64,000 nucleotides of DNA from a virus (taxonomy: Duplodnaviria > Heunggongvirae > Uroviricota > Caudoviricetes): positions 11,507 to 75,506 of the IMG/VR virus record IMGVR_UViG_3300008107_010192; one strand, given 5' to 3'. The notes below the pieces were generated by a model that was not told where the DNA came from, searched no databases, and was given only the letters and a program-made list of their open reading frames with translations. The translations under genes were made by a program, and so were the position numbers. Below, piece after piece: positions 1,894 through 17,784 of the stretch. Every line of letters begins with the position of its first letter. Position 1 is the stretch's first letter.

Positions 1894-2393
1894 ATTAATT
1901 TCGAATTTCCTATTTGTAAATCATTCTTATTTAAAAATAATATAAGGGACCATCTCTCACCTCCTAATATTTTTTTCACTTCATGGTCCCTATCACTTTT
2001 CATTGTATAAATTGTCCCAGTAACTTTAGGAAGTATTTCTAAAGGATTATATGCAATGAATTCTCCACCATCATAACTTTCATTTAAACAAACACCTATA
2101 TTTAAAATTTGATCAGGATGCGTTGTCGAATCATTATGTTTAGCAAATTCATTACCAGCCAAATAACGATGCAAATATATTTCTTGCATTTCATTTATTT
2201 TATTTTTTGAATATTCATCTAAAAGAAATTCTTTCAGTCGATCAAATATCCACTGGGTGTTACTATTTCTAAGTACAACATGATAATAGTAATTAAAATC
2301 ATTTCTTTTAAATAATGATGATGAGTGTTTAGGTTTAAAAGTATTTGATAGATTAATTATCTTATTACATTCTTCTATTGAAAATGAAATCAT
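1890..2393 (-). CDS. 2OG-Fe(II) oxygenase (prolyl-4-hydroxylase-like)
   Basis: HPD (HxD) ... RDHEV (distal His) ... RWS (RxS 2OG-binding) arrangement; DGGEF double-strand beta-helix signature. Confidence 0.6.
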   Translation of the reverse strand: MISFSIEECNKIINLSNTFKPKHSSSLFKRNDFNYYYHVVLRNSNTQWIFDRLKEFLLDEYSKNKINEMQEIYLHRYLAGNEFAKHNDSTTHPDQILNIGVCLNESYDGGEFIAYNPLEILPKVTGTIYTMKSDRDHEVKKILGGERWSLILFLNKNDLQIGNSKLI

Positions 2394-2881
2394 ATTAATT
2401 TTTTTTTATTCATTATGTCGGTTCTTAATCGTTCAGAACTATTCTCGTCAAATAGATCTTCATAATATTGAATTGGTATTTTTAATTTATCAGACAATTC
2501 CTGTAAATCTTGACCCATTTTTATTAAAAGTTCTCTTGATTTATCAATCGTTTCTACTGGTGGTGCGACATATTCATATGGGGTTCCGGAATGATACCCA
2601 TTTCGAATATTGTGATAAAGGTAAGAGTATGATTCGAGATGATTTTTAAAATTTTTTCGATTTAATAATATCACATCATCAAATTTTTTTGATAATTCAA
2701 AATTATTCTCGTGCTGATGTATTATTGTTTTAACAACAACGTTATTCATATCATCGTCATATAAAAAACGATCACTACCGTCAAACGGCTCAAAGATTGC
2801 TCTAAATTCTCTTTCTTTCGAAATTTTATGTAATAAAGATGTAGATCCCGTTCTGGGTAATGATATTATTAAAATTCTCAT
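2390..2881 (-). CDS. sulfotransferase-like protein (Stf0/Sulfotransfer_3-like, tentative)
   Basis: N-terminal ISLPRTGSTSL matches the 5'-phosphosulfate-binding loop PRSGTT. Downstream LNRKNFKNHLES fits the RxxxxxxxS 3'-phosphate-binding motif. Shorter than typical at 163 aa. Confidence 0.45.
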   Translation of the reverse strand: MRILIISLPRTGSTSLLHKISKEREFRAIFEPFDGSDRFLYDDDMNNVVVKTIIHQHENNFELSKKFDDVILLNRKNFKNHLESYSYLYHNIRNGYHSGTPYEYVAPPVETIDKSRELLIKMGQDLQELSDKLKIPIQYYEDLFDENSSERLRTDIMNKKKLI

Positions 2882-4555: not shown

Positions 4556-4557
4556 AG

Positions 4558-5376
4558 TTATATCAAGATGTTAATTTTTCCTTTAGTCTTTTCCGATATG
4601 ATTTTATTTTCTCCAATAAAACGGTATATTTCATCGGAAATTAGTTCATATCCAAGCTTATTTGGATGTACACCAACAAGGTTAATTGGGTTTTTAAAAT
4701 TCTCCCAAATACTTTTTTTATCAAAACTGGTTAAAAAGTCCCTAAATGTTTCTTTGCGGAATCCCCAATAGTGCCTAGTGTCGATCAAATCGGTTTTATC
4801 AATTTCCCCTATAATATTTTTTGGCAACATCATATCGAATCCATCGCAAAACAAATATCTAATACCCAAATTTTTAAACATATATTGCAAATACAATAAA
4901 TAACCCTGGTTGACTATGTTATAATAATTTTCGTTGTATAAATTAACCGTGTACCATTCCTTATAGTCGATTTTTAATTTATTATAAATTTTATTTTCCC
5001 CATTTGAGCTCAGTATATGATCGTATATGTATTTTTTGTCTAGATGTCTTTTACTCCATGAATGCCATTCATTATCTGGCGGAAAAAATGGCAATTCTTC
5101 CCTTAAGGGGGAAGACCACATTATAATCACTAGATCATTCTCTTTAATCCTACCAGTATCTATACATTTACAAACGCAATTAAATATGAATCGATTATCT
5201 GATCCACCTACTCCGTAATTTTGGAGGTCTATTTTTAATTTTTCTGCTAATTGTTTTGGCCAAGAATATTTGCTCCGAATTTTTGTTTTTTCCTCTAAAC
5301 TACTTACCGCATTCTCTTCTGCTAAATCTCCACCAACACCCTCCGTCCAGCTATCCCCGAATGTATATAATTTCAT
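4558..5376 (-). CDS. SGNH/GDSL-like hydrolase (paralog 3)
   Basis: YTFGDSWTEGVGG (block I), YGVGGSDN (block II/III), GVHPNKLGYELI (block V HPN..G). Confidence 0.55.
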   Translation of the reverse strand: MKLYTFGDSWTEGVGGDLAEENAVSSLEEKTKIRSKYSWPKQLAEKLKIDLQNYGVGGSDNRFIFNCVCKCIDTGRIKENDLVIIMWSSPLREELPFFPPDNEWHSWSKRHLDKKYIYDHILSSNGENKIYNKLKIDYKEWYTVNLYNENYYNIVNQGYLLYLQYMFKNLGIRYLFCDGFDMMLPKNIIGEIDKTDLIDTRHYWGFRKETFRDFLTSFDKKSIWENFKNPINLVGVHPNKLGYELISDEIYRFIGENKIISEKTKGKINILI

Positions 5377-5975
5377 AACAGGTTTTTTTTAAACATCTTA
5401 TTGATTTCTCTTTCTCTTACCCAAATAACTAAAATATATTTTACACCATCCACAATTGGTAAACCAGCATGTAATGATTTTTTATTTAGTGTTCTATCCG
5501 GGTTTAAATTATTCCACACCAGCAAATCCCCCTGATTTCCTTTTATTTTAATTTTTTTCAAAGGAAATTCAGTTTCTCCCCCGATATAATCATCATTTAA
5601 ATAAAATATTCCGGTTATTAATCGATCACCGCTTTCCCCATTAGGTATATTCTTTGGGTCTCCGTAGCAGTCATAATGTGGCTTGTATTCTCCCCCAATT
5701 CCATATCTTATAAAGGATACCGGGGTTTCTTGCTGATTAATGGTTGTTTTTGTTTTTTCTGAGAATATTTTACGAACTTTTTTTAGTAATTCGGATTCAT
5801 TTCCATATACAGCAATTTCAGCTTTTCTATATTTTATATCTGATTCCACATCCCCATTAATTGTTCTCGCAGTTTTAAATTCGTTAAATTCTTTTATTAA
5901 TTTTTCACAATCCATTTTATCTAATACTTCTGCATGTAATTGATATAAAAGGTTATTATTTTCAAAGTATCTCAT
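5373..5975 (-). CDS. 2OG-Fe(II) oxygenase, prolyl 4-hydroxylase-like
   Basis: KPHYDCYGDP (HxD), GGETEF, LHAGLPIVDGVKYILVIW (distal His plus basic residue). Start moved to internal Met (MRYFENN), which gives an ATGA overlap with the stop of the upstream gene; the ORF-track start 6038 would overlap 67 nt. Confidence 0.55.
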   Translation of the reverse strand: MRYFENNNLLYQLHAEVLDKMDCEKLIKEFNEFKTARTINGDVESDIKYRKAEIAVYGNESELLKKVRKIFSEKTKTTINQQETPVSFIRYGIGGEYKPHYDCYGDPKNIPNGESGDRLITGIFYLNDDYIGGETEFPLKKIKIKGNQGDLLVWNNLNPDRTLNKKSLHAGLPIVDGVKYILVIWVREREINKMFKKNLL

Positions 5976-6463
5976 ATAATAGTTTTTAATTTTCCCCAGT
6001 TCTTTATGTCCCCGTATCTTATATAAAATAACGCACAATATCTAACCCCTCTTTTTACTTTTTTCACTTCGTGATATTCGCTTGATTTATAATGATATAT
6101 TTCACCCATCGGTTTCAAGTATGGTTTATCGTTTAAATAAAACTCCCCACCTTCATAATCATCATTTAATAATATATTAATATTATAAATAAAATCTCTA
6201 CTGAGTGAATTAGTGGCGGACCCCGAATCTATATGTTTTTGAATTAGGTCACCCTCAATGTATTTTAATATACCTACATTAATTGTACTAATGTCCAAAT
6301 TTAAATACTCACTACAATATTGAATAATTAAATTTTTAATTTCACCGTCTTCGACTTCAAATAAAGTGGAATAGTATGAACCACCAGTCTTCACCCTTTT
6401 CCATAAATTTTTTGATTCTGATAACTCAATCAAATACCTACAATGACTATTTGAGATTTTCAT
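5972..6463 (-). CDS. 2OG-Fe(II) oxygenase
   Basis: QKHIDSG (HxD), YEGGEFYL, YHEVKKVKRGVRY (His and Arg). Confidence 0.55.
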   Translation of the reverse strand: MKISNSHCRYLIELSESKNLWKRVKTGGSYYSTLFEVEDGEIKNLIIQYCSEYLNLDISTINVGILKYIEGDLIQKHIDSGSATNSLSRDFIYNINILLNDDYEGGEFYLNDKPYLKPMGEIYHYKSSEYHEVKKVKRGVRYCALFYIRYGDIKNWGKLKTII

Positions 6464-6466
6464 TAT

Positions 6467-6976
6467 TTAAATTAAATTTTTATAGATTTTAATCTGATCT
6501 ATTTCATTTGTCAATGATCCATAAATTCCAATTCTTTCTGGGGTTGAAAATTCGTCACATAAAAAATCCTCTGTTTTAAAAATTAATAGATCTCCGTCTT
6601 CCAATACTATTTCTTTTATTTCATTTTTTAATCTTAATGATATCTTACTTTTAAAGGATTTTATAAAAAGAATGAATGAATATTTTGATTTTGGATTTAT
6701 CCCTCTTTTTAACTGCTTATCGAATTTTATTTCTTGGTCCAATTCCTGTTCCTGTATATAAGCGAAGGTGTTTTTGACATATACTTGAAAATCCTCTAGA
6801 GTTTCTTTTTCTAGGTTTTGTAATATGATTTCAATTATTTTTAAAGTTGTGTCCGATTCTAACCACAGGATTCTCTTATTAAATTCGGATTTTACGTGAT
6901 GTGAATTCAGTATAATATCATATTTTAATAGTTCCAAATTAATTTTTGGCTTAACGATTTTATAAAACATGATCAA
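6467..6976 (-). CDS. hypothetical protein, degenerate paralog of the neighbouring oxygenase-like gene
   Basis: Shares the GDLLIFKTEDF segment with 6973..7686 (GDLIFKTEDE) but lacks the metal-binding His/Asp residues. Confidence 0.3.
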   Translation of the reverse strand: MIMFYKIVKPKINLELLKYDIILNSHHVKSEFNKRILWLESDTTLKIIEIILQNLEKETLEDFQVYVKNTFAYIQEQELDQEIKFDKQLKRGINPKSKYSFILFIKSFKSKISLRLKNEIKEIVLEDGDLLIFKTEDFLCDEFSTPERIGIYGSLTNEIDQIKIYKNLI

Positions 6977-7629
6977 GAATTTATATGATTTTTGAAGACG
7001 ATCCTTCTATTTGTTTCCCTAATAGAATTAAAATCATAATTAATATTCGTTGTGTATACTATTCTATCAGATTCTGAACCTAATGTAAGGGTTGGCATAT
7101 GTTGTAAATCACCAGGAAAAAATAGAATATCGCTTTCTTTTGGAGTGAATGAATGTAATTTTTCGTCTTCTGTTTTAAAAATAAGATCCCCTTCTCCATC
7201 TTTAAGATCCGAAGGAATTTGTATATAAAAAACATAGGTCCATTGCGTTTTCAAATTTGTTCTATTCGATGATTCTATCCAGTCATGGGTGTGCATCCAT
7301 TCCATTTTAAAACCCGGAACTTGTATGTATATCCAACTGGATTTTATAAATCTGTCTATTTTGCAAGACAATTTTTTCCTTAAAAAATCCAATGCCTGAT
7401 TATCTACAGATCTAAATTCATCGCATCCAATATGGACGTCCAATGAATTTTGTACCCTGTATGTCTCGTTTTGGTATAAGGATTCGTTTTGATATATTCT
7501 AGTTAAAAATTCTTTTTTCGAAAACTGATTATCGTACCTTGTCTTGTAGATTGTGTATTTTTCTGACAGCTTATATTGTTCTGAAAAGTTTATTTTTTTC
7601 ATATTTCCCATATTTAGTAAACAGTTCAT
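6973..7629 (-). CDS. cupin/2OG-oxygenase-like protein (divergent)
   Basis: HTHDW and LQHMP His-containing segments flank a beta-rich core. Start is uncertain: ORF-track start 7686 overlaps the upstream gene by 116 nt and internal Mets lie at 7629/7611/7602. Confidence 0.3.
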   Translation of the reverse strand: MNCLLNMGNMKKINFSEQYKLSEKYTIYKTRYDNQFSKKEFLTRIYQNESLYQNETYRVQNSLDVHIGCDEFRSVDNQALDFLRKKLSCKIDRFIKSSWIYIQVPGFKMEWMHTHDWIESSNRTNLKTQWTYVFYIQIPSDLKDGEGDLIFKTEDEKLHSFTPKESDILFFPGDLQHMPTLTLGSESDRIVYTTNINYDFNSIRETNRRIVFKNHINS

Positions 7630-8005
7630 TTCCACGATATATTTTTTTCGTGGCAATCGATAAATTTCTATCAATATTCGGTTCACTATCCCAAGAACAG
7701 CTGTTTACCCAGTGCATGGGTGTTTTAAATATCCAATGACAATTTTTTTCTAGATTGACATTAAACGTCCATTCGTCACCAATCTTAGAAAATTCGTACA
7801 TATCATAAACATGGATCTTAACGTTATAATCAAGGGAATTTAATTCTGATTCAGTTAATTGGTAAATCCCTGAATCCCCCTTCCAGTTAACGAATATTTC
7901 TTCCCCCTCATCGATATCTCTAAGAGCAAAAATACCTACTCCGTGTATATTGCTCGGCGACATTTTAACGTTCACATGATTTTTGATGTATTCATATGCA
8001 GTCAT
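7571..8005 (-). CDS. SET-domain protein (putative protein lysine methyltransferase)
   Basis: IHGVGIFALRDIDEGEEIF (GxG..FA..I..GE.I SET N-region), VNSCSWDSEPN (NHSC.PN-like), RGNELFTKYG (EEL..YG C-flank), ~140 aa like viral vSET. Confidence 0.5.
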   Translation of the reverse strand: MTAYEYIKNHVNVKMSPSNIHGVGIFALRDIDEGEEIFVNWKGDSGIYQLTESELNSLDYNVKIHVYDMYEFSKIGDEWTFNVNLEKNCHWIFKTPMHWVNSCSWDSEPNIDRNLSIATKKIYRGNELFTKYGKYEKNKLFRTI

Positions 8006-8478
8006 TATATGAAATTTTTTGGTGTGGTTCTGAATTGAGATCCATAGTTTCCTAATATCTCTTCACCTTCTTTTATCTTTCTAATTGCAACAGGTGCCAC
8101 ATTATTATTGCTATCCACGTTACAGTTTTTCAATCCACTGTTCATAAACATTTTTGGCCAAATGTATATCCAGTGATAACCTCGCTCTAAGGGGAAAAAT
8201 ATTTTTCCATATTCCTTAGGTATGATTTGTTCGACCCCATTTTTATCAACAAACCACATTTTATTGTCAAAGGTTTCGTATAAATTTTTTTGGAGCTTAT
8301 CAGGGAGTGTGAATAATTCTTCCTGTGTAATTGAATATATCCCACTCTCCCCATGCCAAAGATCAAAAACAGATTCACCTGCTTCAATATCTCTAATGGC
8401 AAAAAATCCAACGCCCTCTACAGAACTCGGCTTAAGTATTGCTGTGACCTTTTGCTGAAGATATTCTAAAGGAGTCAT
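8005..8478 (-). CDS. SET-domain protein (paralog of 7571..8005)
   Basis: VEGVGFFAIRDIEAGESVF, MNSGLKNCNV, IKEGEEILGNYG; directly tandem to the other SET gene. Confidence 0.55.
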   Translation of the reverse strand: MTPLEYLQQKVTAILKPSSVEGVGFFAIRDIEAGESVFDLWHGESGIYSITQEELFTLPDKLQKNLYETFDNKMWFVDKNGVEQIIPKEYGKIFFPLERGYHWIYIWPKMFMNSGLKNCNVDSNNNVAPVAIRKIKEGEEILGNYGSQFRTTPKNFI

Positions 8479-8642: not shown

Positions 8643-10517
8643 TTATATTTTTGGTATTCCTCTGTTATGTGCTAAAATTCCATTAGCAAAAAAGTTATGA
8701 TTATTTTTAATATCCTGTAAATTATAAACTAGAGTGGTTTCTTCTATCATGTTTATGTTCACAATTTTTGAGCTCCCCTTTAATAACTTTAAACAGTCTC
8801 CAATCTCTATCTTACCGATTTTAGATTCTATAGTATACAGTTTATTAGATAGATTATTATCGAATGAAGACCATCCTTTATCTTCAACATATACTGGGTG
8901 ATCTATGGTACATTTTAAAAATTCACCATTCTCTAATTCATACTCAACAATTCGGTCCACTTTTTTACTATAAACAGCATTTACTGTATTGGCCTCAATA
9001 TTATTTGATAGCATGTTAAGTGTCAGTACAGAATCACCAGCAATAATATCCTCTATATTTTTTGTAACACCTTCCGAGATGGTTATTTTCGTGCCTGCAA
9101 CGAAACATGGTGCATTGTGTGTTACGAATGAATTGACAGGAGTTGATCCTGCTATTATGTAGGTGTCAGTATCCTCAACATCAATTTCAACTAAGCTGAA
9201 ATTGTTTTCATTAATTATTAATATTTCAGAATTTGTGACCTGCGCTAATGATCCATCATAATCTACTAAGTAATCTGTCGTTGTTTTTATGTTTACAGAT
9301 TGTTTCCATACGATCGAGTCCATTCCCTCGTCATAAACTAAGAAAGATTTATGAACCGACGTATAAATTGAATCCTCGTTATTATTTACTGTTATATTAG
9401 ATAATGTTTTATTCAACAATTCTTTACTATTTTTATATATAACAGTAGATGTCGTTAGATTAGATTCCGGTGGTAAGGTGTTTCCTGATATTTGCCAAGT
9501 TGGATATGTGAAGTCGTCTTCCGTTAAATCTGTTCCCCCTATATAATAAGATTTTATTTCTTCCCCGACAGAAATGTTCCCTATTTCTACCTCAGTATCA
9601 TCAGATTTAATTATTAAATGCGTGTTTAAAATGCCATCAATTATACCATCATATTTAATAAAATTTGTTGCAAACTCGTAATAATGTTTATTGTCTATCT
9701 TATTAATGTATTGGGCTTCATTATAAATTGATTCGACAGGTAATTCAAATGCCGCACTTTCCTGAAATTGTCCTACGTGAATTAGGGACAGATCACCTCC
9801 GTAAATAATCGAGAAAGTTCTCACTGTGGAAACTTTATTATCTGAAACGGTTTGTGAACTTATGTGATATTTTTGTATTACGTTATTTTCTGTTGCCTTT
9901 TCGCTGATGAATACTCCCCATCGGCTTTGGTCTGTATCTTCAGTGGATTCGCTGCCTATTTTATAAAAATCTATAAGGGAATGTTCCGCATCGCTTATGT
10001 TTTTTATTAAGCAATCTGGCAAATTTCCCGAATTAAAATCCCTAGAAATCGTATCGTATTGTCCGAGTGAGGATGAATGATAAAACTCCGCAACGCTATC
10101 CTGCTCATTATAATCACAGAATAGCCTAAGTGTGTTTAATGTTCCCTTAGCATACTCGCTATCAAAAATGGCTGATTCGTCATACGCCATTCTCAGAACG
10201 AATAAGTCTGAAGCATCCTCAACAGGAGTCGGGTATATTCTGTTTGATTGCTCTTTTATCTCCTTAAATTCTGTGATAAATGGAGCGTTCGATGTCAATG
10301 ATTCGGAAAGTTTATCGACTATATACTGATGTATGTTCGGCTTATGTACTACCGTTACTCTTGTGATGTTATTGCTCTCTAAAACCGAGATAAGGTCGTT
10401 AAAATCCAGATAGACTAAATTATTAGTCGAAATAGTTGTGTCTGTATTTACTTCCAATAGTCTTAAATTGCCAACGCTATCCTCAATAAAATCCGCGGAA
10501 AAAAAGGTTCCTTTCAT
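8643..10517 (-). CDS. large protein with C-terminal Hint (hedgehog/intein-like) autoprocessing domain
   Basis: C-terminal ~140 aa: CFVAGTKITISEG (Hint block A Cys) ... TIDHPVYV (block B TxxH) ... NHNFFANGILAHN (blocks F/G) then RGIPKI and stop. Hint-region coordinates about 8664..9091. Confidence 0.6.
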   Translation of the reverse strand: MKGTFFSADFIEDSVGNLRLLEVNTDTTISTNNLVYLDFNDLISVLESNNITRVTVVHKPNIHQYIVDKLSESLTSNAPFITEFKEIKEQSNRIYPTPVEDASDLFVLRMAYDESAIFDSEYAKGTLNTLRLFCDYNEQDSVAEFYHSSSLGQYDTISRDFNSGNLPDCLIKNISDAEHSLIDFYKIGSESTEDTDQSRWGVFISEKATENNVIQKYHISSQTVSDNKVSTVRTFSIIYGGDLSLIHVGQFQESAAFELPVESIYNEAQYINKIDNKHYYEFATNFIKYDGIIDGILNTHLIIKSDDTEVEIGNISVGEEIKSYYIGGTDLTEDDFTYPTWQISGNTLPPESNLTTSTVIYKNSKELLNKTLSNITVNNNEDSIYTSVHKSFLVYDEGMDSIVWKQSVNIKTTTDYLVDYDGSLAQVTNSEILIINENNFSLVEIDVEDTDTYIIAGSTPVNSFVTHNAPCFVAGTKITISEGVTKNIEDIIAGDSVLTLNMLSNNIEANTVNAVYSKKVDRIVEYELENGEFLKCTIDHPVYVEDKGWSSFDNNLSNKLYTIESKIGKIEIGDCLKLLKGSSKIVNINMIEETTLVYNLQDIKNNHNFFANGILAHNRGIPKI

Positions 10518-10557
10518 ACTTAATATTTTCTTTTATATCCCAATATAACAAAATGCA

Positions 10558-10767
10558 TCACTTTTTTAGACCATATTTTATATATCTATACCATACCCTC
10601 TCGTGTAAAAAATATAAGGCCATCTTGGTTATCACCTCAAAGCCGCCAATGGCGATTCCTATTTTTATATTACCTGTTATGGCCCAGCTTAAAATAATCG
10701 TATCTAATGTTCCGACTATTCTCCATGTTATAGTTTTAGCTATGTGTCTCTTTACCTGAGGCATCAA
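10558..10767 (-). CDS. DUF2061-like small membrane protein
   Basis: VKRHIAKTITWRIVGTLDT...KMALYFLHERVW resembles the DUF2061 consensus (ITWRI..T...LHER.W). Family recalled from memory as commonly found next to APS kinase genes. Confidence 0.45.
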   Translation of the reverse strand: MMPQVKRHIAKTITWRIVGTLDTIILSWAITGNIKIGIAIGGFEVITKMALYFLHERVWYRYIKYGLKK

Positions 10768-11107
10768 TTGTTCCCTCCCTTATTTTGGTACCGCTTATTA
10801 GCGCAATATTTTCTGGGGGCTCGTGGTAAATAACCTCATAACCTACCCCTCTCCCATAATTGATTGATTCAATGTCGGGAATTATCGAAAGAAGTATTCT
10901 GTCAGAATTTTTAACAAAAAACGATTCTTTGGAAAGATCTTCCAAAATTTGTTGTGCTTTTTTTGGATTATTGGCATCTTGATCTACGTCCCTGATAGCG
11001 ACCCAAATGTTTTTTCCCTTCTCTAACTGTTGATTAATAAGCCATTCGTGTCCTTTGTGCCAGTTCTGCCATCTACCTATATAGAGAGCATATTTTTTAC
11101 CTTCCAT
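10736..11107 (-). CDS. HxGH-motif nucleotidyltransferase (cytidylyltransferase-like)
   Basis: YALYIGRWQNWHKGHEWL matches the (T/H)xGH nucleotidyltransferase signature of the TagD/NMNAT/PPAT/ATP-sulfurylase fold; small (123 aa). Confidence 0.45.
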   Translation of the reverse strand: MEGKKYALYIGRWQNWHKGHEWLINQQLEKGKNIWVAIRDVDQDANNPKKAQQILEDLSKESFFVKNSDRILLSIIPDIESINYGRGVGYEVIYHEPPENIALISGTKIREGTIDASGKETHS

Positions 11108-11113
11108 TAATAT

Positions 11114-11542
11114 TTATACGCGCAGAAGGAGACAAAGTTCCACGAAAGATCTTTCTATGCTGGATCCGTTTCGAAAAATTAAAAAGTTTTCCTCAGGACC
11201 TTCAAAATTTTTAACGTGTAACTTTTCCTTCCCTCCGTAATCGTTCCTGGAAAATAAAACCTCTACAACATCGTTATTTTGCTTTAGATCTTCCCTTATA
11301 GCACGATAAGGACAAACCATACTTATCACCACGTTATGTCCTTTAACCGACATAAAACGAGCTATAGTGAAGGACCTTTCTATGTTCTTGATCCTGCCAG
11401 AATAAGAATAGTCAGTATTGGGGAATATTTCCCTCAGATCATCGCCATCTATCCATACAGTTCCCATTCCTAATCTTCTAACTAAGAGCTCTGCCATTGT
11501 AGTTTTACCCGATCCTGGCTGTCCTATTAATAGGTATATCAT
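11114..11542 (-). CDS. P-loop kinase, adenylylsulfate (APS) kinase-like
   Basis: LIGQPGSGKTT (Walker A), WIDGDDLREIF (compare CysC LDGDNVRHGL), RIKNIERSF...VVISMVCPYRAIRE (compare CysC RKENIRRV...VLTAFISPHRAER). Confidence 0.5.
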   Translation of the reverse strand: MIYLLIGQPGSGKTTMAELLVRRLGMGTVWIDGDDLREIFPNTDYSYSGRIKNIERSFTIARFMSVKGHNVVISMVCPYRAIREDLKQNNDVVEVLFSRNDYGGKEKLHVKNFEGPEENFLIFRNGSSIERSFVELCLLLRV

Positions 11543-11704
11543 AGTAAAGTAATATCTAGTGGTTATAAATAAATGGGTCTCTTTTTCTTAGTTCCTCCAG
11601 TTTTTTCTTAAATCTTTTTTTCCTTTTATAGTTGTCTATACTTTTCTTTATCCAACTGAAAAGAATCAATCCCCTTAAGAACACAAAGAATTTTCTAAAG
11701 TGCT

Positions 11705-12052
11705 TCATTTATAATTATTTTTAAATTCCTCTAATCCCATGGCTTTATCGTCGATTAGGTAGTCATAATGCAATTTTCCCATTATCAGTCCATGGTGATT
11801 TATTCCCCATTCTTTTAAACTATCCAGGGTAAGAACATAAAGACTGTTATAAACCTTAACCAGATCTCCATTGAACTGTCCCATTCCCCTAGCAGTGTAA
11901 ATGTAAATGGTGTGACCCTCATCATAAAGTTTATTCGATTTATCAATCATGTGCTTTATGGGTACACAATGTTTATATTTATCTGGGCCAAGGTGTTCCA
12001 GATTTTTATCCCGGGTACATAATGTATCGTCTAAATCAAATGCGTAAATCAT
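11705..12052 (-). CDS. HAD-superfamily phosphatase-like
   Basis: N-terminal MIYAFDLDDTLC (DxDxT motif I); small 115-aa HAD core. Confidence 0.5.
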   Translation of the reverse strand: MIYAFDLDDTLCTRDKNLEHLGPDKYKHCVPIKHMIDKSNKLYDEGHTIYIYTARGMGQFNGDLVKVYNSLYVLTLDSLKEWGINHHGLIMGKLHYDYLIDDKAMGLEEFKNNYK

Positions 12053-12153
12053 AGCGTTAGTTCTTTTAATATGTATTCTGATAATATAATATGGAATATC
12101 TCACCATAATGAAGATCTTCAACTTTTCCTTGGTGTCTCCAAAGACCCAAAGA

Positions 12154-13113
12154 TTATTGGACATAACTGAGCAGTCTTATTAATCTTTGCTTTATGTTAT
12201 TTTTAATCGTTTCATCCATAGAATAATCCATTTTAATAATATTATTTAATTTTTGATAGTTATAGTGACCGCAAACCATTATTAATTTTCTTTTATTCGA
12301 AAAATCAAAATTCAGATCTACCCACTTTTCCCATTTTTTAGAATCGTAGCATACCTCGTAAAACATGTCTATCTGATCCTTTTCCATAAAATCTATTATC
12401 GTTTCCGTTTCAATTTGTGCTATTTCTGGCCCAATATTCAAACTATTCAATCCTCTTTTAAATCTTACAACAATATCCGGCCAATCAAGATAATCGCCAT
12501 TATGTTCCTTTGATTTCTTTCCATATGATTTGCATATTCCGATCATAGATTCTAAATCTTCTATATTGAATTTTCCTATATTTTTTTTATTAGCTATATC
12601 TAAACCCACCCCCGATTGAATACACACATATTCTATTTTTTCAAATTCATCCCCGGTTAGACCAATTTGTAATTCTCTCAAAAAAAAATCCAGATCTTCA
12701 GTGGTAATTTTTTTGATTGCCTCTTCTGTCCCAACTTCAAATAAGATGTTTGAATTTAATTTGTGAATGAATTTAATGTTTTCGATTGTTTCTTTTGTCC
12801 CAGATTCGATATCTTGGTATTTTTTCCATGGATCTATGTGTACGATATCAAGATACTTGGAGTCATTAAAATAAGATTCATATTCGTCAGTGTCTCCTTG
12901 CCCTATTCCCCCATGATCCCTTTCTATTATTATTTCGGATCTTTCTTTGACATAATTCTTGAATGCTTCGGTTGTCCAATTATTAACATATCCTCCATTA
13001 AATTCTATCTGTCTTCTGCTTGGCAATAATCCTATCTTTTTAGAGCCCAATTCTATGACTGCATCCACTATGTTTTTAGACATTGGACATATGAAATAAT
13101 TTATTTCAGACAT
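12154..13113 (-). CDS. GatZ/KbaZ (tagatose-6-phosphate kinase/aldolase-subunit) family-like protein
   Basis: Aligns by eye to GatZ: ICPMSKNIVDAVIELG / ICSVCSAHPLVIEAAL; EFNGGYV / NQFGGYT; ERDHGGIG / GGDHLGPN; VHIDP / IHLDAS; EVGTEE / VIGTEV. Confidence 0.4.
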   Translation of the reverse strand: MSEINYFICPMSKNIVDAVIELGSKKIGLLPSRRQIEFNGGYVNNWTTEAFKNYVKERSEIIIERDHGGIGQGDTDEYESYFNDSKYLDIVHIDPWKKYQDIESGTKETIENIKFIHKLNSNILFEVGTEEAIKKITTEDLDFFLRELQIGLTGDEFEKIEYVCIQSGVGLDIANKKNIGKFNIEDLESMIGICKSYGKKSKEHNGDYLDWPDIVVRFKRGLNSLNIGPEIAQIETETIIDFMEKDQIDMFYEVCYDSKKWEKWVDLNFDFSNKRKLIMVCGHYNYQKLNNIIKMDYSMDETIKNNIKQRLIRLLSYVQ

Positions 13114-13762
13114 ATTCTATTCCCGTGTATATTTTAAACTGTTCGATAGCTTGATATCTTGACATTAATTTTCCGCTTTCGAATTCTGTTCTTGCTTCGA
13201 TAATCCGACCGTTTGTGCAAACGTCCACTGGAGTTGCATTAAAAATCCACCCATCCAAACTTTCAATTTTGCTCCAGTTTTTCCTTTCTATTATTTCATA
13301 CTCTATTCCCCGAATTCTACACACATATTGGACTGCTAGACTAAAACCTCCATTTCCCAGTATGGCTATTTTTTTAACTTCCCTTGGTAAATATTTATCT
13401 ATGCCAATCCAGTCTGTGTTGTAACCGAGTAATTTGTTATCAACTATTTTAACAGTATTACACGAACCAATATCTGCGACGGAAGAATCACACCAATCTA
13501 AATAATCTAATATTTGCACTTTATACGGCATGCTAATTGCAAATCCACCAAATTTTAAGTTCTTAGCGGATTCTACCGATAATTCTATATCGTCGCTATA
13601 AAATGATTTATAAATTGCATCAACTGAATACTTCTGAAAAGCACTATTGAAAAAATGACATCCATTATTTCCTGGGTTCTTTGAAAAAGATCCGAATATC
13701 TTAGTATCCTTGTTTATCAACACCTGCGACATTTTATAGTGATAATAATATATTTTCAGCAA
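13106..13762 (-). CDS. shikimate/quinate dehydrogenase-like (AroE family), C-terminally short
   Basis: KIFGSFSKNPGNNGCHFFNSAF (AroE substrate domain), GGFAISMPYK (catalytic Lys), SCNTV, LLGYNTDWIG (NTD motif), IAILGNGGFSLAV (Rossmann GxGG). Confidence 0.6.
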   Translation of the reverse strand: MLKIYYYHYKMSQVLINKDTKIFGSFSKNPGNNGCHFFNSAFQKYSVDAIYKSFYSDDIELSVESAKNLKFGGFAISMPYKVQILDYLDWCDSSVADIGSCNTVKIVDNKLLGYNTDWIGIDKYLPREVKKIAILGNGGFSLAVQYVCRIRGIEYEIIERKNWSKIESLDGWIFNATPVDVCTNGRIIEARTEFESGKLMSRYQAIEQFKIYTGIEYV

Positions 13763-14519
13763 TTATATACTGTCCAGTTTCGTTTGGGTGATGATCGTTA
13801 ACTAATTCTTCCCAAAATTTTGTATCATAATTTTTATATCTGTCAGAATATCTTAAGCATTCATTTGATGTAAACCTCTGAGCGTCGATATTAAATTCAT
13901 CATCATCTAGCGGAAAGTAAATAATTCTGCTTGGATGAGTAATTGTTTTAATGACATTTTCTTTCCTTTTTTGCGTGGAATTTACATCTTTAGGATGTAT
14001 AGGGTTTAAAAACCAATATTTAACTGTCGCACCTATTTTATTTTCCAAATAATCAAAAACAGGAAGTACGTTTTTAAATCCAAGAATTAATAATTCAATT
14101 CTAAAATCTAAAACGAAATCTACGTATTTTTTCATTTTTTCTTCATCATAAAATTTTTCACTCCTGAAATAATCAATCTGATGCCAATCAAAATCTATCA
14201 ATACGTCATTTATTTCAAATATGTCTTTACTAGACCACGATTCTCTTACGTGGTTTTCGTTAACAAAAGGTACAGGGAACCTATCTGGGTATGTAAACTC
14301 GAAAACCACTAAATCCCCCTTCTTTATTTTTTCCATCTGCCTGAACAGCTTTACCGTAGATTCAAAATTGGATTGACCACTAAACCCGTTATTTACAAAA
14401 TTGAATCCAATTTTTTCGGCTAATATTTCTGGCCAAAATTTCAAGCCGTATTCTTTTTCGTGATGTGGAGAATGAGTCCAACTACATCCGTAAGCCCATA
14501 GTGTGTTTTTTGTAATCAT
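13734..14519 (-). CDS. SGNH-like hydrolase paralog (GCS variant)
   Basis: LWAYGCSWTHSP in place of GDS block I, NGFSGQSN, NDHHPNETGQYIIA (block V). Confidence 0.45.
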   Translation of the reverse strand: MITKNTLWAYGCSWTHSPHHEKEYGLKFWPEILAEKIGFNFVNNGFSGQSNFESTVKLFRQMEKIKKGDLVVFEFTYPDRFPVPFVNENHVRESWSSKDIFEINDVLIDFDWHQIDYFRSEKFYDEEKMKKYVDFVLDFRIELLILGFKNVLPVFDYLENKIGATVKYWFLNPIHPKDVNSTQKRKENVIKTITHPSRIIYFPLDDDEFNIDAQRFTSNECLRYSDRYKNYDTKFWEELVNDHHPNETGQYIIAENILLSL

Positions 14520-16413
14520 CTAGAATTTCTATAGATTTGAACCATAACATTTTACCAAATTTTCCATCGTGTAATGGAGACATATTTAGAAATATCAGGC
14601 CTGTTATAAATTTAATCTTATCGAGATCGAATCCGTTTTTCCTGATCCATCCCTCATATTCAGATCTAAACTTAATTAGATTCTTTGAGATATGATATTC
14701 ATATTTAATAGAATAAGATCCTTCAAAGTATGTGATATTACTGTCATCTTTCATTAAATTGTATGGGATTATTAATCCGCCATAAAACTTAGAAAGATCG
14801 TAATAAATGTCTCCAGATTCTACATTTTCTCCAAAGCAGTCTCTCCAGTCTATGTAATAGTATTCGCCATCTTCCGATAATATCATATTATCAAAGTGGA
14901 GATCACCATGAAAATTAGAATAGAAAGGATTCTCGTAAAGACAGTCAAATATTTTTTCATCAGATAATATAAGATCCAAAGATGGTCTTTTAATTTCGTT
15001 TATTTCATGATCAGAAACAAAATAACTTTCTCCATATTTAGCAAGAAATGATTCTAGTCTTTTATGGGTTTTGTCGACATAAAACTTTTTAAGATCTTCT
15101 ATGTTTGCAGGGATTGTCTCCTTGGTGAGGAATTCCAGCTTTGTCAAAAACCTACTAAAATCCCCCAGTTCCCCGCGATCGTATAAAGTTTTACCTTCTA
15201 TCCAATCGTAATAAAGAAAATTCCCAGCAACATTGAAATTTGGGGGAACCAAGCCTCTTAAAATTTCTCCTCTAATTTTCCTTCTTTCTAGCAGATCTCT
15301 ATCTTGTGTAAACTTTAAAAATTTACCCCCGTCCTTATAGGTTATTTCTCCTATGTCTTTTTTCAAAGATAGCGGTTTATCATTAAAGTACTGTCTAGCT
15401 TTATCTAGATCGTCTAGATTTCCGGTATCTAGCCATTTTAACTTTTTTGCCTTTAGACTTGTATAGACTTGAGGTGATTCAAATGCAGAAACTAATTCAC
15501 CGCTTTTAATATTTTCTTTAAGCTCTTTCCAGAAAGTGGAGTAATCTGATATTCCTCCGAAACCAACAAATGCTAGATCGTATCCGTCAGTACTTTTGTT
15601 AACGAAAGATGTTATATTTTCTTTATCGTCCATCTTCACCGTGGAGTATTTTTCTGGATATGATGTTGAATGAACCCCTAACCAGTTACCGTTTATTCCA
15701 GGGATCGGAGAATCTATGATACAATCTCCCATTATAAAATAAAAAGGTCTTTGAAGATGCTCGGAGCACAACAGAGCGCTTGTACCTGGCCCAGTTTGCG
15801 AAGGATCATAATTCTCGACATTTACGAATGTAAATTTGTGATCTGGATAAACTAGATTACAATACTCTTTGACGGAATCTCCCTTGTATCCAATAGCTAT
15901 GATAAAGTCATATTCCTTAGGGAATTTTTCTATTATGTAGGATATGATAGCCCGATTGTTTACCGGCAATAAAGTTTTATTTATGTTGTCTGTTAATTTT
16001 TTTAGACGGCTACCTAAGCCTGCACATAATATTAAAACCGCGGGAGTTTTATGCTCGCTTTCGATCTTTCCATCAGGTCTATTTGTATCATCCTCCACTC
16101 GTATTACATCGTCGACCTCCGGGGTAGAAACTTCTTGCATTATCAGGTCGGTCAAAGCAATTACCCTGTGTTTTTTAGGAGGAATTACGTTATAGTATTG
16201 ACCTGGGCCGTACACCTCCTTAACAATTTCACCTTGATCATTCTCCAGCCAAATTTCTGCTTGTCCCGATATGATATAGTTAGTTTCTTTTTTAAAGTTG
16301 TGATACTGTAAAGATGTTTTATATCCCTCGTTTATATAGATTCTTTTATAACAATAAGAATCATTAAGTTCTATCCATTCTTCTTTACCCCACGGTTTAT
16401 AAATTGTTTTCAT
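14482..16413 (-). CDS. tri-domain fusion: cupin (mannose-6-P isomerase type-II-like) + sugar-1-phosphate nucleotidyltransferase + APH/choline-kinase-fold kinase
   Basis: N-term YKPWGKEEWIELND...SLQYHNFKKETNYIISGQA (cupin); middle VLILCAGLGSRLKKLT...KTLLPV (NTase G-x-G-x-R-L motif); C-term FHGDLHFDNMIL...YYIDWRD (Brenner HGDxxxxN and D of DFG). Confidence 0.6.
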   Translation of the reverse strand: MKTIYKPWGKEEWIELNDSYCYKRIYINEGYKTSLQYHNFKKETNYIISGQAEIWLENDQGEIVKEVYGPGQYYNVIPPKKHRVIALTDLIMQEVSTPEVDDVIRVEDDTNRPDGKIESEHKTPAVLILCAGLGSRLKKLTDNINKTLLPVNNRAIISYIIEKFPKEYDFIIAIGYKGDSVKEYCNLVYPDHKFTFVNVENYDPSQTGPGTSALLCSEHLQRPFYFIMGDCIIDSPIPGINGNWLGVHSTSYPEKYSTVKMDDKENITSFVNKSTDGYDLAFVGFGGISDYSTFWKELKENIKSGELVSAFESPQVYTSLKAKKLKWLDTGNLDDLDKARQYFNDKPLSLKKDIGEITYKDGGKFLKFTQDRDLLERRKIRGEILRGLVPPNFNVAGNFLYYDWIEGKTLYDRGELGDFSRFLTKLEFLTKETIPANIEDLKKFYVDKTHKRLESFLAKYGESYFVSDHEINEIKRPSLDLILSDEKIFDCLYENPFYSNFHGDLHFDNMILSEDGEYYYIDWRDCFGENVESGDIYYDLSKFYGGLIIPYNLMKDDSNITYFEGSYSIKYEYHISKNLIKFRSEYEGWIRKNGFDLDKIKFITGLIFLNMSPLHDGKFGKMLWFKSIEILDDYKKHTMGLRM

Positions 16414-17128
16414 GATATTGATCTTGATTATTTCCCCAATCCATCGTTTTTTGGAATATCGTATTTATAGATATCTCTTCTTTATTTAACTGTCTAGAGT
16501 TAGCCCTTACAGTAACGACAGATGTTCTTGGAATTTTTTTAATTTTTATTTCACTTAGTAAAATGTGTTTGGCTAAGTGATGATGCATGGAGCCGTTACA
16601 TTCGTTTCCGTCTAATCTTTCCGGTATATTATCAATTAATTTTTCGATTAGATCATATTTACCAAAGAAAAAAATATCCTGTATGAATAATTCTTCCCCG
16701 TTATTTCTAATCTCTTCTAACCCGTATACAGATCCCTCTCTTAAATCCTCATCCGAATTTATATTCTCAAAATCGAAATTAAAATCAAAATAATTATCAG
16801 GTCTTGTTAGCATGATATAATCATATTTTATACCGCTTTTTTTGATCATTTTAAGCCCGGATTTCCAGTGGAATATCATCTTTTCTGGATTGGTTAATTC
16901 AGAAAACACATCATCTAATATTAAAACATTTGCGTCTTTAATATGATCTAATATTCTTTTTTCTGTGACTTCCTCGTCGATTATGATGTCTAGTTTTTTA
17001 TTTTTTTGCTTGGATCTAGACCATGTTGAAAAATAAACCTCGCAATCAAACTTGCTTAAAAAATTCCAAGAAGTAACAGCAATATCAAATTCCCTATACA
17101 TCCCATAAACCAAAATTGCAATTTTCAT
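16397..17128 (-). CDS. GT-A-like putative glycosyltransferase (MKIAI family paralog)
   Basis: MKIAILVYGMYREFD...YFSTW and HWKSGLKMIKKSGIKYDYIMLTRPD resemble the W.K......YDYI.(D/R)xD core of GT34/nucleotide-diphospho-sugar transferases. Confidence 0.3.
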   Translation of the reverse strand: MKIAILVYGMYREFDIAVTSWNFLSKFDCEVYFSTWSRSKQKNKKLDIIIDEEVTEKRILDHIKDANVLILDDVFSELTNPEKMIFHWKSGLKMIKKSGIKYDYIMLTRPDNYFDFNFDFENINSDEDLREGSVYGLEEIRNNGEELFIQDIFFFGKYDLIEKLIDNIPERLDGNECNGSMHHHLAKHILLSEIKIKKIPRTSVVTVRANSRQLNKEEISINTIFQKTMDWGNNQDQYHENNL

Positions 17129-17784
17129 ATGATTTTTACCTTTGATTTTATTTCATTTTCTATGTATTGGCAAAAATCCCTATGACCCTTGAATGACCAG
17201 TGATGGTTTACTATTTCTCCCTTTGTTGCATTGACTATTAATTCAAATTTTTCCCAGAGACTTTCTACATCCCAGATATAGCAGAGATTTACTCCTCTAT
17301 CTTTTAGTAGTCTTTCTCTCAAAAAATTCAGTCTAAAATCGTGTCTGATAGAATAAGCTTTCTGTGTTGCAAATTCTATTGAAAACATTTTTATGGTCTC
17401 TATCTGCTCGTTGGTAAATAATCCAACGGTTGCATCTTCAAACCATTTTTGTACGTCTTTTTCCCCTCCCCTATAAACTATAGATTTGACTTCCGGTGAA
17501 TCATTTTCTTTCGGAAAGTCAAATCTGTGTGACCAGGTTTTACCTATTATTACTATATCGTCCTTAGAAATATCCTCCCAGTTTTTTATTATAGTATCAA
17601 TAATAGTATCGTTAGACACCCCAGGTAAACCTTTATTTTGTAGAGCATAGTTTATTTTTCTGGATAATAATTTATTCCAAGAAAGGTCATCATCTTTTAA
17701 CCTATATCTTTGATAATATAGATCATGATCTAATGTGCCGTCTCCGTATGTAAAAGAACATCCAAATGTCCAGATTTTATTCAT
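17125..17784 (-). CDS. SGNH-like hydrolase paralog (GCS variant)
   Basis: IWTFGCSFTYGDG, KGLPGVSNDTI, NHHWSFKGH. Confidence 0.45.
   Translation of the reverse strand: MNKIWTFGCSFTYGDGTLDHDLYYQRYRLKDDDLSWNKLLSRKINYALQNKGLPGVSNDTIIDTIIKNWEDISKDDIVIIGKTWSHRFDFPKENDSPEVKSIVYRGGEKDVQKWFEDATVGLFTNEQIETIKMFSIEFATQKAYSIRHDFRLNFLRERLLKDRGVNLCYIWDVESLWEKFELIVNATKGEIVNHHWSFKGHRDFCQYIENEIKSKVKII

Follow-up and report, generated by a model that had tools for sequence, protein, structure and literature searches.

A conserved phage gene trio with an APS-kinase homologue that probably supports glycan sulfation and may include a new minimal sulfate-activating enzyme

A three-gene module within a glycan-modification island

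The window analysed here, a 64,000-nucleotide stretch of a viral record from IMG/VR, contains an island with many unusual glycan-modifying enzymes. Embedded in it are three overlapping or abutting genes, running from position 11542 down to 10558, which encode in this order a P-loop kinase, a small nucleotidyltransferase and a DUF2061 protein. An earlier interpretation made from the letters alone (the sequence-only reading) had proposed that this trio forms a PAPS-supply module with a sulfotransferase-like gene nearby, and the four ORFs on which it drew were all found where it had placed them, each on the minus strand. The features considered below are the following, with the basis of each assignment in brackets.

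11705..12052, minus strand: HAD-superfamily phosphatase (DxDxT), 115 aa, immediately upstream of the module (profile matches)
11556..11708, minus strand: small basic ORF, 50 aa, between phosphatase and kinase (copies in relatives)
11114..11542, minus strand: APS-kinase-family P-loop kinase of a short-lid subtype, 142 aa (Pfam APS_kinase, PDB matches, family motifs)
10736..11107, minus strand: minimal HxGH nucleotidyltransferase of the NadM/archaeal NMNAT lineage, 123 aa (motifs and family profile)
10558..10767, minus strand: DUF2061 small membrane protein, 68-69 aa (Pfam PF09834)
2390..2881, minus strand: sulfotransferase-like protein with a minimal P-loop-like fold and without the kinase lysine, 163 aa (motifs, family profile, fold)

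Kinase, nucleotidyltransferase and DUF2061 constitute a conserved module: their order is retained in relatives whose kinases share 95%, 70%, 50% and 45% identity with that of the window, amid unrelated flanks. In 79 of 80 related viral contigs the gene immediately after the nucleotidyltransferase encodes DUF2061. The kinase precedes the nucleotidyltransferase in 44 of 74 loci; the remaining 30 carry the nucleotidyltransferase-DUF2061 pair without kinase, and conservation is much stronger for this pair than for the kinase. The two ORFs upstream can only tentatively be counted as part of the module. The HAD gene, which matches TIGR01689 capsule phosphatase (4.5e-7), PNK3P (0.0036) and phrog_1238 (1e-26), was found in the closest relatives (L003 and L004) and was absent from the wider locus set; its product could remove the 3'-phosphate of PAP or belong to a neighbouring sugar pathway. 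Copies of the 50-aa ORF, 80% identical, occur just upstream of the kinase in four relatives (L034, L053, L057 and L065).

No phage hallmark gene was found in the window, and its designation as phage rests on its IMG/VR relatives and on the phage genes of related contigs. Megablast of positions 9500-14500 against cultured phages returned zero matches and tblastn distant relatives only, which indicates that this large phage belongs to an uncultured lineage. A giant eukaryotic virus, suggested by GT7, collagen, SET and P4H-like genes in the window, was considered as the origin and set aside, the relatives residing in IMG/VR phage contigs with sheath, terminase, UvdE, Hsp20 and peptide deformylase genes.

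Family relationships of the encoded proteins

The kinase is homologous to APS kinases. In Pfam it matches APS_kinase best (3.9e-11; 43.7 bits, with the cutoff at 21.1; aligned to profile positions 6-97 of 152), its PDB sequence matches are APS kinases in 20 of 20 cases, these being its sole significant relatives there, and the profile of its family retrieves APS kinases at E=1.5e-15, the next family being Zeta toxin at 1e-4. The top NCBIfam models are likewise all adenylyl-sulfate kinases, yet they score under their cutoffs (TIGR00455, 44.5 against 138.7; PRK05541, 53.6 against 127). A better match to gluconate, shikimate or chloramphenicol kinase had been named in advance as an outcome that would speak against the proposal; instead APS kinase ranked first in Pfam, NCBIfam and PDB alike. 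The P-loop GQPGSGKTT fits the Walker A pattern GxxGxGK(S/T), with G7, G12, K13 and T14 invariant among 35 family members, and IDGDDLR, in which I31, D32, G33, D34 and R37 are invariant in the family alignment, corresponds to the DGDxxR motif and aligns to LDGDxxR of solved APS kinases. In APS kinase this motif supplies a Mg2+ ligand, the catalytic base and an APS-binding Arg. Taken over the family the invariant elements are GQPGxGKT, IDGDxxR, GR, N and (S/C)P(Y/F)..R, and the conservation shared with CysC (PF01583) comprises GxxGxGKT, DGDxxR, the Arg and Asn of (D/G)R..NI, and SP(Y/F)..R. The likeness to CysC noticed in the sequence-only reading is therefore upheld, but for a short-lid variant. 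The window kinase has 142 aa against about 175-200 in CysC, its P-loop reads GQP, and the mobile lid RDxKGLYKKARxGEIxxFTG is not intact, 18 residues including KKAR.GEI..FTG being deleted relative to canonical CysC, with only R(G/D)(K/R)E and (F/Y)ExP left as remnants. Because this segment with its FTG is absent and the NCBIfam cutoffs are not reached, the substrate could differ from APS; we propose that the kinase would phosphorylate the 3' position of APS to give PAPS.

The nucleotidyltransferase carries both signatures of the HIGH-motif superfamily (CTP_transf_like), namely HxGH (H17-K-G-H20, within GRWQNWHKGH) and ISxTxxR (I104-S-G-T-K-I-R110, containing ISGTKIR), with H17, H20, S105 and R110 invariant across the broad family, and its fold is Rossmann-like. 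Searches with the single sequence were weak (CTP_transf_like, E=0.04; NMNAT models, about 1e-4), whereas the family profile matched NMN adenylyltransferases at 2.6e-11, and the modelled structure, poor after residue 84 (the C-terminal third), is nearer to NMNAT and PPAT. ATP sulfurylase did not appear among the matches of the profile search. Neither the motifs QxRNPxHxxH and GRDHAG nor the PUA-like N-domain of Sat is present, PF01747 is unmatched, and the protein falls outside that family. By sequence and fold its nearest relatives are instead archaeal/NadM NMN adenylyltransferases, with which it shares GR(F/W)QP(F/W)HxGH, an NP motif after strand 2, IPDI, GYEV and ISGTxIR. It does not qualify as one of them, since it scores about 22 with NCBIfam models whose cutoffs are 127-409. 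It ends right after ISGTxIR, and about 30 residues of the NMN-binding region (DIxxNxxW and the following helix and strand) are replaced by a family-specific GRxVGY. The description of this ORF as a minimal HxGH nucleotidyltransferase stands, and what it shares with ATP sulfurylase is the common fold. The family comprises >750 sequence clusters and, in the loci examined, always accompanies APS kinase or DUF2061 and never NAD genes.

The identification of DUF2061 was confirmed by a PF09834 match at E=7.4e-23, which scored 81 bits where the cutoff is 23 and spanned profile positions 1-51 of 52. Translation probably begins at the ATG at 10764, with AGGGAGGG just before it, and the reading frame shares 29 nt with the 3' end of the nucleotidyltransferase gene. 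Bacteroidota DUF2061 proteins are 58-79% identical to it.

ORF 2390-2881 is located about 8 kb away from the trio. Searched on its own it has no Pfam, NCBIfam or PHROG match, Sulfotransfer_1/3 included; 7 of 19 relatives match Sulfotransfer_3 weakly (best 1.8e-4). Its assignment as sulfotransferase-like is supported by the family profile and, with less certainty, by the fold. The 5'-PSB loop PxxGS(T/S) without kinase Lys is present as LPRTGSTS, with P9, R10, T11, G12 and S13 invariant among 36 homologues, and can be aligned with the corresponding loops of NodH and CurM; the 3'-PB motif (Arg...Ser) is present as the invariant R75 and S84, aligned to ERENKLASYSS of NodH; and a YYED segment is common to the window protein and the Stf0/NodH/CurM sulfotransferases. 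In the structure model Stf0 is the best match, at a score barely above those of small P-loop kinases. Loop, R75/S84 and profile agree with the original reading of PRTGST, and a proposed check on the PAPS-binding residues, like that on the kinase, left the idea of a PAPS-supply module with a nearby sulfotransferase-like gene standing and, overall, supported. The protein is much shorter than Stf0, NodH and CurM (163 aa against 240-320), with acceptor-binding regions largely absent, and we regard it as a candidate user of PAPS. The same phage islands repeatedly contain sulfotransferase-like paralogues.

Genomic associations of the module's relatives

The statement in the sequence-only reading that DUF2061 typically accompanies cysC-like genes proved accurate: of 80 Bacteroidota loci, 75 have DUF2061 beside or fused to canonical cysC (11 being single-ORF fusions). 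The bacterial proteins precede or are fused to cysC, in the operon order DUF2061 / APS_kinase (3.5e-66) / CysD / CysN / CysQ-like, and in the window DUF2061 is the second gene after the kinase homologue. DUF2061 is also included in a Mesorhizobium nodPQ-nodH locus (bioRxiv 10.1101/2022.04.26.489235). The same small protein is coupled to APS kinase and sulfate activation in the Bacteroidota operons and the rhizobial nodPQ/nodH loci, but the bacterial operons include CysDN as sulfurylase, a canonical CysC and a PAP phosphatase, whereas the phage has the small transferase instead of CysDN and a short-lid kinase. From this context we propose that DUF2061 is a membrane partner or anchor of sulfate-activating enzymes.

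Fusions between members of the nucleotidyltransferase family and APS kinase domains recur in phages, bacteria and haloarchaea and come in both orders; the Natrinema 'cysC' (WP_226778284.1) is one natural example, and PHROG 10255 and the homologue in Xylella phage Salvo, gp32, also join kinase and nucleotidyltransferase. Many of the partner kinases are canonical, with all APS-kinase motifs, and some fusions contain full-length canonical domains (9.5e-69, 1.7e-61 and 4e-53); one fusion with a full-length APS kinase domain comes from a phage contig, where DUF2061 comes after it. The fusions are often directly beside sulfotransferase genes, Pfam-significant or annotated, in phage, bacterial and haloarchaeal loci, and in seven independent contexts relatives of the fusion or pair directly adjoin sulfotransferases and polysaccharide export genes. 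The individual contexts are as follows.

L175: fusion or pair adjoining Sulfotransfer_1, with Wzx
L177 (phage contig): fusion or pair adjoining Sulfotransfer_2
L184: gene order DUF2061-APSK-NTase-Sulfotransfer_1
L250: sulfotransferase directly adjacent to fusion or pair
L179: sulfotransferase directly adjacent to the fusion, with cysD/cysN also beside it
Two haloarchaeal megaplasmids: sulfotransferase directly adjacent to fusion or pair
L180 and L181: fusion with methyltransferase, B12 radical-SAM and sulfatase-family genes, no sulfotransferase

The arrangement recalls the bifunctional PAPS synthases (metazoan PAPSS, Aquifex Sat-CysC), in which an HxxH-type nucleotidyltransferase is coupled to APS kinase; as there, relatives of the window pair are true fusions, here in both orders and beside sulfotransferases. 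The window transferase differs in being about 120 aa long and NMNAT-derived, without PUA-like domain, QxRNPxHxxH or GRDHAG; its relation to Sat goes no further than the common fold, and its sulfurylase activity is putative. We also compared the occurrence of cysD or cysN near APS kinase, which was 1 in 10 for transferase-bearing loci and 41 in 75 for loci without transferase (Fisher p=0.015, on small numbers with phage contigs included), the latter being mainly plain cysC loci from a metagenome scan with the fusion alignment, which picked APS-kinase motifs. The contrast is in keeping with a displacement of CysDN by the transferase. In the sole transferase-bearing locus with cysDN nearby, His replaces the near-invariant Arg of GRxVGY. 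At L179, where cysD/cysN stand beside the fusion, a sulfurylase role of the fusion would not be needed.

A putative route to PAPS and its alternatives

Three associations outside the window, of DUF2061 with cysC, of the transferase with APS kinase in fusions, and of these with adjacent sulfotransferases, point to PAPS. The explanation that we favour, with somewhat better than even confidence, is that the trio is a phage sulfate-activation module feeding PAPS to the sulfotransferase-like enzymes of the island, such as that encoded at 2390-2881. The NMNAT-derived nucleotidyltransferase would adenylylate sulfate (ATP + sulfate -> APS + PPi) in place of CysDN or Sat, a role proposed from its genomic context, which would equally fit another partner function of APS kinase. 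The short-lid kinase would then phosphorylate the 3'-OH of APS to yield PAPS, a step that host CysC may perform for phages without the kinase. The DUF2061 protein, a two-helix protein whose bacterial counterparts are fused to CysC, would tether or organise the enzymes at the inner membrane. On this basis the phage probably sulfates glycans, with tyrosine as the other candidate target, and it may use a new minimal sulfate-activating enzyme.

A bolder generalisation, which we advance tentatively and hold at rather less than even confidence, is that the transferase of about 120 residues represents a third, minimal class of ATP sulfurylase, widespread in phages, bacterial polysaccharide loci and haloarchaeal megaplasmids, whether alone or joined to APS kinase, and forming compact cassettes with a DUF2061 membrane partner by which large aquatic phages would sulfate cell-surface or virion glycans. 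To our knowledge, two enzyme types, CysDN and Sat, account for sulfate activation. Our literature search found no description of the trio or its link to sulfotransferases, of the transferase-APS-kinase fusion, of a DUF2061 function or of a third type of ATP sulfurylase. If correct, an NMNAT-like sulfurylase of 120 residues would be a new and very compact solution to sulfate activation, of use for PAPS regeneration in biocatalysis, and a function would be assigned both to DUF2061 and to the whole nucleotidyltransferase family. The phage 'cysC' auxiliary genes, abundant and highly transcribed in lakes, would then serve glycan sulfation and not the provision of cysteine, which would bear on how phage and host recognise each other and on the influence of viruses on the sulfur cycle.

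Several other readings of the same genes have to be weighed. The pair could make a different 3'-phosphorylated nucleotide donor (NTP + X-P -> NDP-X, then 3'-phosphorylation) from which the sulfotransferase-fold proteins transfer X, by the logic of CoA synthesis, where PPAT is followed by dephospho-CoA kinase, or of the Campylobacter O-methyl-phosphoramidate cofactor, with Cj1416 and the CysC-like Cj1415. The NMNAT- and PPAT-like character of the transferase, resembling enzymes that act on phosphate esters, fits such a donor, as do the short-lid kinase without FTG, the wealth of unusual glycan-modifying enzymes in the island, and L180 and L181, whose neighbours include sulfatase/phosphotransferase-family genes in place of a sulfotransferase. 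We nevertheless consider it unlikely, given the many canonical full-length APS kinases with every motif among the fusion partners, the Pfam-significant Sulfotransfer_1 and Sulfotransfer_2 neighbours (families that are PAPS-dependent), the membership of DUF2061 in cysC-cysDN-cysQ operons, and the lack of any X-P-making enzyme conserved with the trio. CoA synthesis itself by a pair of PPAT and DPCK-like enzymes was set aside for the same reasons. Improbable too, in our judgement, is a conventional cysC auxiliary metabolic gene through which the phage would raise the host's assimilatory reduction of sulfate for cysteine during infection, with the transferase and DUF2061 as accessory or regulatory proteins and the sulfotransferase-like gene unrelated. 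Phage-encoded cysC has indeed been reported as widespread and highly transcribed in large-genome phages of freshwater and interpreted as assimilatory sulfate reduction (PMC10914622, whose text, when searched, mentioned neither the coupled nucleotidyltransferase nor DUF2061 nor sulfotransferases); DUF2061 is host-like and forms part of cysC-cysDN operons, and 8 kb separate the sulfotransferase-like gene from the trio. Against assimilation stand the location of the module in a glycan-modification island, the recurrence there of sulfotransferase-like paralogues, and the seven contexts with sulfotransferases and polysaccharide export genes; moreover, a CysD-derived profile of the PAPS-reductase superfamily is unmatched in the window, although a divergent cysH could escape it.

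The favoured PAPS module was further set against two readings that dispense with sulfur. A NadR-like NAD+ salvage pair (nicotinamide riboside kinase and NMN adenylyltransferase), with DUF2061 as an uptake component, could counter an NAD-depleting defence, but we give it very little credence: the kinase is specifically APS-kinase-like, NadR/Nrk kinases being unmatched, the NMN pocket of the archaeal NMNAT is replaced and the NMNAT scores fall far under cutoff, a NadV or Nudix partner is absent, and it is sulfotransferases and cysC operons that recur nearby, rather than NAD genes. A polynucleotide kinase-phosphatase-like end-healing set, composed of the P-loop kinase, the upstream HAD phosphatase and the nucleotidyltransferase, seems more improbable still. 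It accords with weak matches of the kinase to the polynucleotide kinase PHROG 505 (3.9e-7) and of the HAD protein to phrog_415 (1e-13) and PNK3P, and with tblastn matches to jumbo-phage RNA-repair kinases (3e-4); however, conservation of the trio does not extend to the HAD gene, the transferase belongs to neither the ligase nor the capping type of nucleotidyltransferase, and the matches of the kinase to APS kinases are far stronger, extending through the SPY..R region.

Gene organization and family of the kinase

The sequence-only reading had proposed a phage-encoded supply of PAPS (3'-phosphoadenosine 5'-phosphosulfate, the sulfate donor) with a sulfotransferase-like gene nearby. The four ORFs of interest are present where it had placed them, inside a minus-strand gene array that spans ~32461 down to 677 in the window:

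11114-11542, (-): APS-kinase-like kinase, 142 aa
10736-11107, (-): nucleotidyltransferase (hereafter transferase), 123 aa
10558-10767, (-): DUF2061 protein, 69 aa
2390-2881, (-): sulfotransferase-like protein, 163 aa

The kinase stop lies 6 bases away from the start of the next gene, and the DUF2061 gene shares the last 29 nt of the gene preceding it, its probable start being ATG 10764 behind the Shine-Dalgarno AGGGAGGG.

Assignment of the 142-aa protein to the CysC/APS kinase family was borne out in Pfam, NCBIfam and PDB searches. Its best Pfam family was APS_kinase (3.9e-11, above the gathering score), its top NCBIfam matches were adenylyl-sulfate kinase models with scores under their cutoffs, and the PDB sequences matched by the single sequence were APS kinases in 20 cases out of 20. 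A profile built from 35 members of the family matched 23 APS-kinase entries in the PDB (E=1.5e-15 to ~4e-6), the next kinase-like family being Zeta toxin (1e-4); the gluconate, shikimate and chloramphenicol kinases that the sequence-only reading had named as rivals were not among the matches of this profile search. The P-loop, IDGDxxR, G49-R50, N53, P78 and R83 are invariant in the family, from which 18 residues including KKAR.GEI..FTG are absent when aligned with canonical CysC. The family is thus of a 'short-lid' subtype, with the catalytic core intact and part of the nucleotide-substrate lid gone. A small basic 50-aa ORF (11556-11708, (-)) is placed between a HAD phosphatase gene and the kinase gene; copies 80% identical lie directly upstream of the kinase in the homologous loci L034, L053, L057 and L065.

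Conservation of the trio and the DUF2061-cysC association

The gene order kinase-transferase-DUF2061 was retained at 95%, 70%, 50% and 45% kinase identity, with different flanks between contigs. Scanning IMG/VR with the transferase yielded 80 loci, DUF2061 being directly downstream in 79 of them; of the 74 with enough flank to judge, 44 have the kinase immediately before the transferase. Because identities across these loci are higher for the transferase (~75-80%) and DUF2061 (~50-60%) than for the kinase (~40-50%), the transferase-DUF2061 pair is the conserved core and the kinase a frequent addition. In kinase-less loci the pair is flanked by a UvdE-like endonuclease and a peptide deformylase, and such phages would depend on host CysC. 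Xylella, Xanthomonas and Stenotrophomonas phages carry kinase and transferase as a single protein (PHROG 10255, Salvo gp32).

The 69-aa protein matches DUF2061 over its full length (PF09834, E=7.4e-23, Pfam). That DUF2061 typically accompanies cysC-like genes, as the sequence-only reading had put forward, was confirmed by scanning a single genome from each species. The 80 loci recovered, Bacteroidota throughout, encode DUF2061 proteins 58-79% identical to the phage protein, and 75 of them have a canonical-length APS kinase, mostly immediately downstream; in 11 loci the two form one ORF (two examples run through Pfam gave DUF2061::APS_kinase). These are PAPS-forming operons, with the order DUF2061, APS_kinase (3.5e-66), CysD, CysN and a CysQ-like inositol-monophosphatase-family protein (Pfam) in Aequorivita. 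A preprint (bioRxiv 10.1101/2022.04.26.489235) reports a DUF2061 gene alongside nodP, nodQ and nodH in a nod locus of Mesorhizobium. The phage protein would anchor or organise the enzymes at the membrane. The window itself has no phage hallmark gene; its assignment to a phage is based on its relatives in IMG/VR and on the phage genes that related contigs carry. The close resemblance of DUF2061 to Bacteroidota proteins and the G+C of 29-38% hint at a Bacteroidota host.

The transferase and its proposed role in sulfate activation

The 123-aa transferase carries the motifs GRWQNWHKGH and ISGTKIR and gave weak matches to cytidylyltransferase-like and NMN adenylyltransferase models (Pfam, NCBIfam). 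A profile of 43 diverse members matched MJ0541 and NadM at 2.6e-11 to 1e-9, PPAT at just 4e-3 and no ATP sulfurylase at E up to 10. The fold proposed to be common with ATP sulfurylase is indeed shared but the two have no specific relationship, and by sequence the family derives from archaeal/NadM NMN adenylyltransferases. In the latter, ~30 residues after DIxxN build the NMN pocket, whereas the transferase family has its own specific motif, GRxVGY, there instead.

A HMMER search run in full against 1.84 billion representatives returned 766 clusters of the transferase family, many matches being two-domain proteins with APS_kinase (Pfam) on either side of the transferase. The partner is full-length and canonical in the homologous proteins P0425 (9.5e-69), P0449 (1.7e-61) and P0393 (4.1e-53) and short-lid in P0378 and P0383. 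Another family member, P0402 (249 aa), is fused to DUF6717, not to APS kinase.

The gene for P0393 (transferase::APS kinase) is preceded by a Wzx-type flippase and followed by a Sulfotransfer_1 protein, and a Sulfotransfer_2 protein comes after P0449 (APS kinase::transferase) on a phage contig that also encodes a terminase. P0425 precedes DUF2061 on a contig that has a phage sheath gene. Locus L184 has the order DUF2061, APS kinase, transferase, Sulfotransfer_1, and in L250 a Sulfotransfer_1 gene is divergent from APS kinase and transferase, with a Wzi capsule gene alongside. Two haloarchaeal megaplasmids (L260, 7513-10615; L261, 7506-10616) share a cassette of sulfotransferase, annotated 'cysC' (an APS kinase::transferase fusion) and YqcI-YcgG family protein, conserved across two genera despite unrelated flanks. 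In L179 the fusion adjoins cysD and cysN, an ABC exporter and sulfotransferase-glycosyltransferase fusions. On the short contigs L180 and L181, the place of a sulfotransferase beside the transferase and canonical APS kinase is taken by genes for a methyltransferase, a B12-binding radical-SAM enzyme and a sulfatase-family protein, a context not readily explained by simple sulfation.

Among the loci sampled, cysD or cysN lay close to the APS kinase in 1 of 10 distinct loci with the transferase versus 41 of 75 without it (Fisher p=0.015; 0.09 when restricted to long flanks). The only transferase::APS-kinase fusion found beside cysD/cysN, P0399 (L179, 7300-8259), reads NYGHDVGY: the Arg that is near-invariant in GRxVGY is His here, perhaps a sign that the transferase domain is degenerate in the presence of CysDN. 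This rarity and the altered motif of the lone exception suggest, without proving it, that the small transferase substitutes for CysDN.

The kinase family, the conservation of the trio, the 'Rosetta-stone' links of APS kinase to both DUF2061 and transferase and the repeated sulfotransferase adjacency are established, and the best-supported reading is that the trio serves the phage as a sulfate-activation module, supplying sulfotransferase-like enzymes encoded in a large island for glycan modification. The transferase would adenylylate sulfate; that it represents a new minimal class of ATP sulfurylase is a serious possibility to which we give somewhat less than an even chance. The main rivals are that the transferase-kinase pair makes another 3'-phospho-nucleotide donor, or that the genes do no more than raise sulfate assimilation by the host, which is how phage cysC has been interpreted (PMC10914622). 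Against an NAD salvage system of the NadR type speak the APS-kinase specificity of the kinase and the remodelled NMN pocket of the transferase. Phage cysC being already known, the novelty of a sulfate-activation module is that of a variant PAPS-supply pathway; we found no description in the literature of the coupled NMNAT-like transferase or its APS-kinase fusions, nor of the phage DUF2061 link or a tie to sulfotransferases.

The sulfotransferase-like protein and the surrounding island

As a single sequence, the 163-aa protein had no match in Pfam, NCBIfam or PHROGs. The same phage islands repeatedly encode homologues of it, often in multiple copies and whether the locus has the kinase or not, with R10, G12, P32, R75, S84 and E141 invariant within PRxGST, EPF, LL.R......S and YYED. 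The top PDB match of the family profile was the NodH LPS sulfotransferase (0.007), whose alignment covers the PSB loop as well as the Arg/Ser stretch; CurM sulfotransferase scored 0.027, and 7 of 19 members weakly matched Sulfotransfer_3. An AF2 model from an alignment of database homologues was confident (pLDDT 86.8, pTM 0.82). Together, the fold, the lack of a lysine in the P-loop and the presence of both PAPS-binding motifs point to a putative minimal sulfotransferase, by a small margin over small kinases. The protein would use PAPS.

The island holds GT2, GT7 and GT8 glycosyltransferases, radical-SAM enzymes, 2OG-oxygenase-like proteins and a cupin/NTP-transferase/APH protein. The latter (14482-16413, (-), 643 aa) combines a mannose-6-P-isomerase-type cupin, NTP_transferase and an APH-type kinase, a LicA/LicC-like layout which suggests activation of a phospho-substituent or unusual sugar; it adjoins a truncated shikimate-dehydrogenase-like protein (13106-13762) and two proteins of unknown family. 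Two eukaryote-like GT7 (beta-1,4-galactosyltransferase family) proteins, each fused to Laminin_G_3 (27839-30684, (-)), a 1043-aa collagen-repeat protein (46184-49315, (+); Collagen 1.7e-77) and many P4H-like 2OG oxygenases together look like a collagen-like fibre glycosylation system.

A 624-aa protein (8643-10517, (-)) has a C-terminal Hint/intein-like domain (AXH 1.4e-13, Intein_splicing 1.1e-10), and many viral loci have distant relatives of it downstream of the trio. Near-identical relatives of two adjoining small proteins (7571-8478, (-)) show weak or faint SET-domain matches. Proteins encoded at 677-8478, 17125-19562, 22025-22945 and 24499-27838 (-) end in a basic residue and two aliphatics (KLI, RLI, NLL, KII and similar) across unrelated families (2OG-oxygenase-like, SGNH-like, sulfotransferase-like, radical SAM, DUF6071). 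Homologues on other phage contigs keep this C-terminus, which may be a sorting, docking or packaging tag or reflect a constraint from ATATGA stop-start overlaps.
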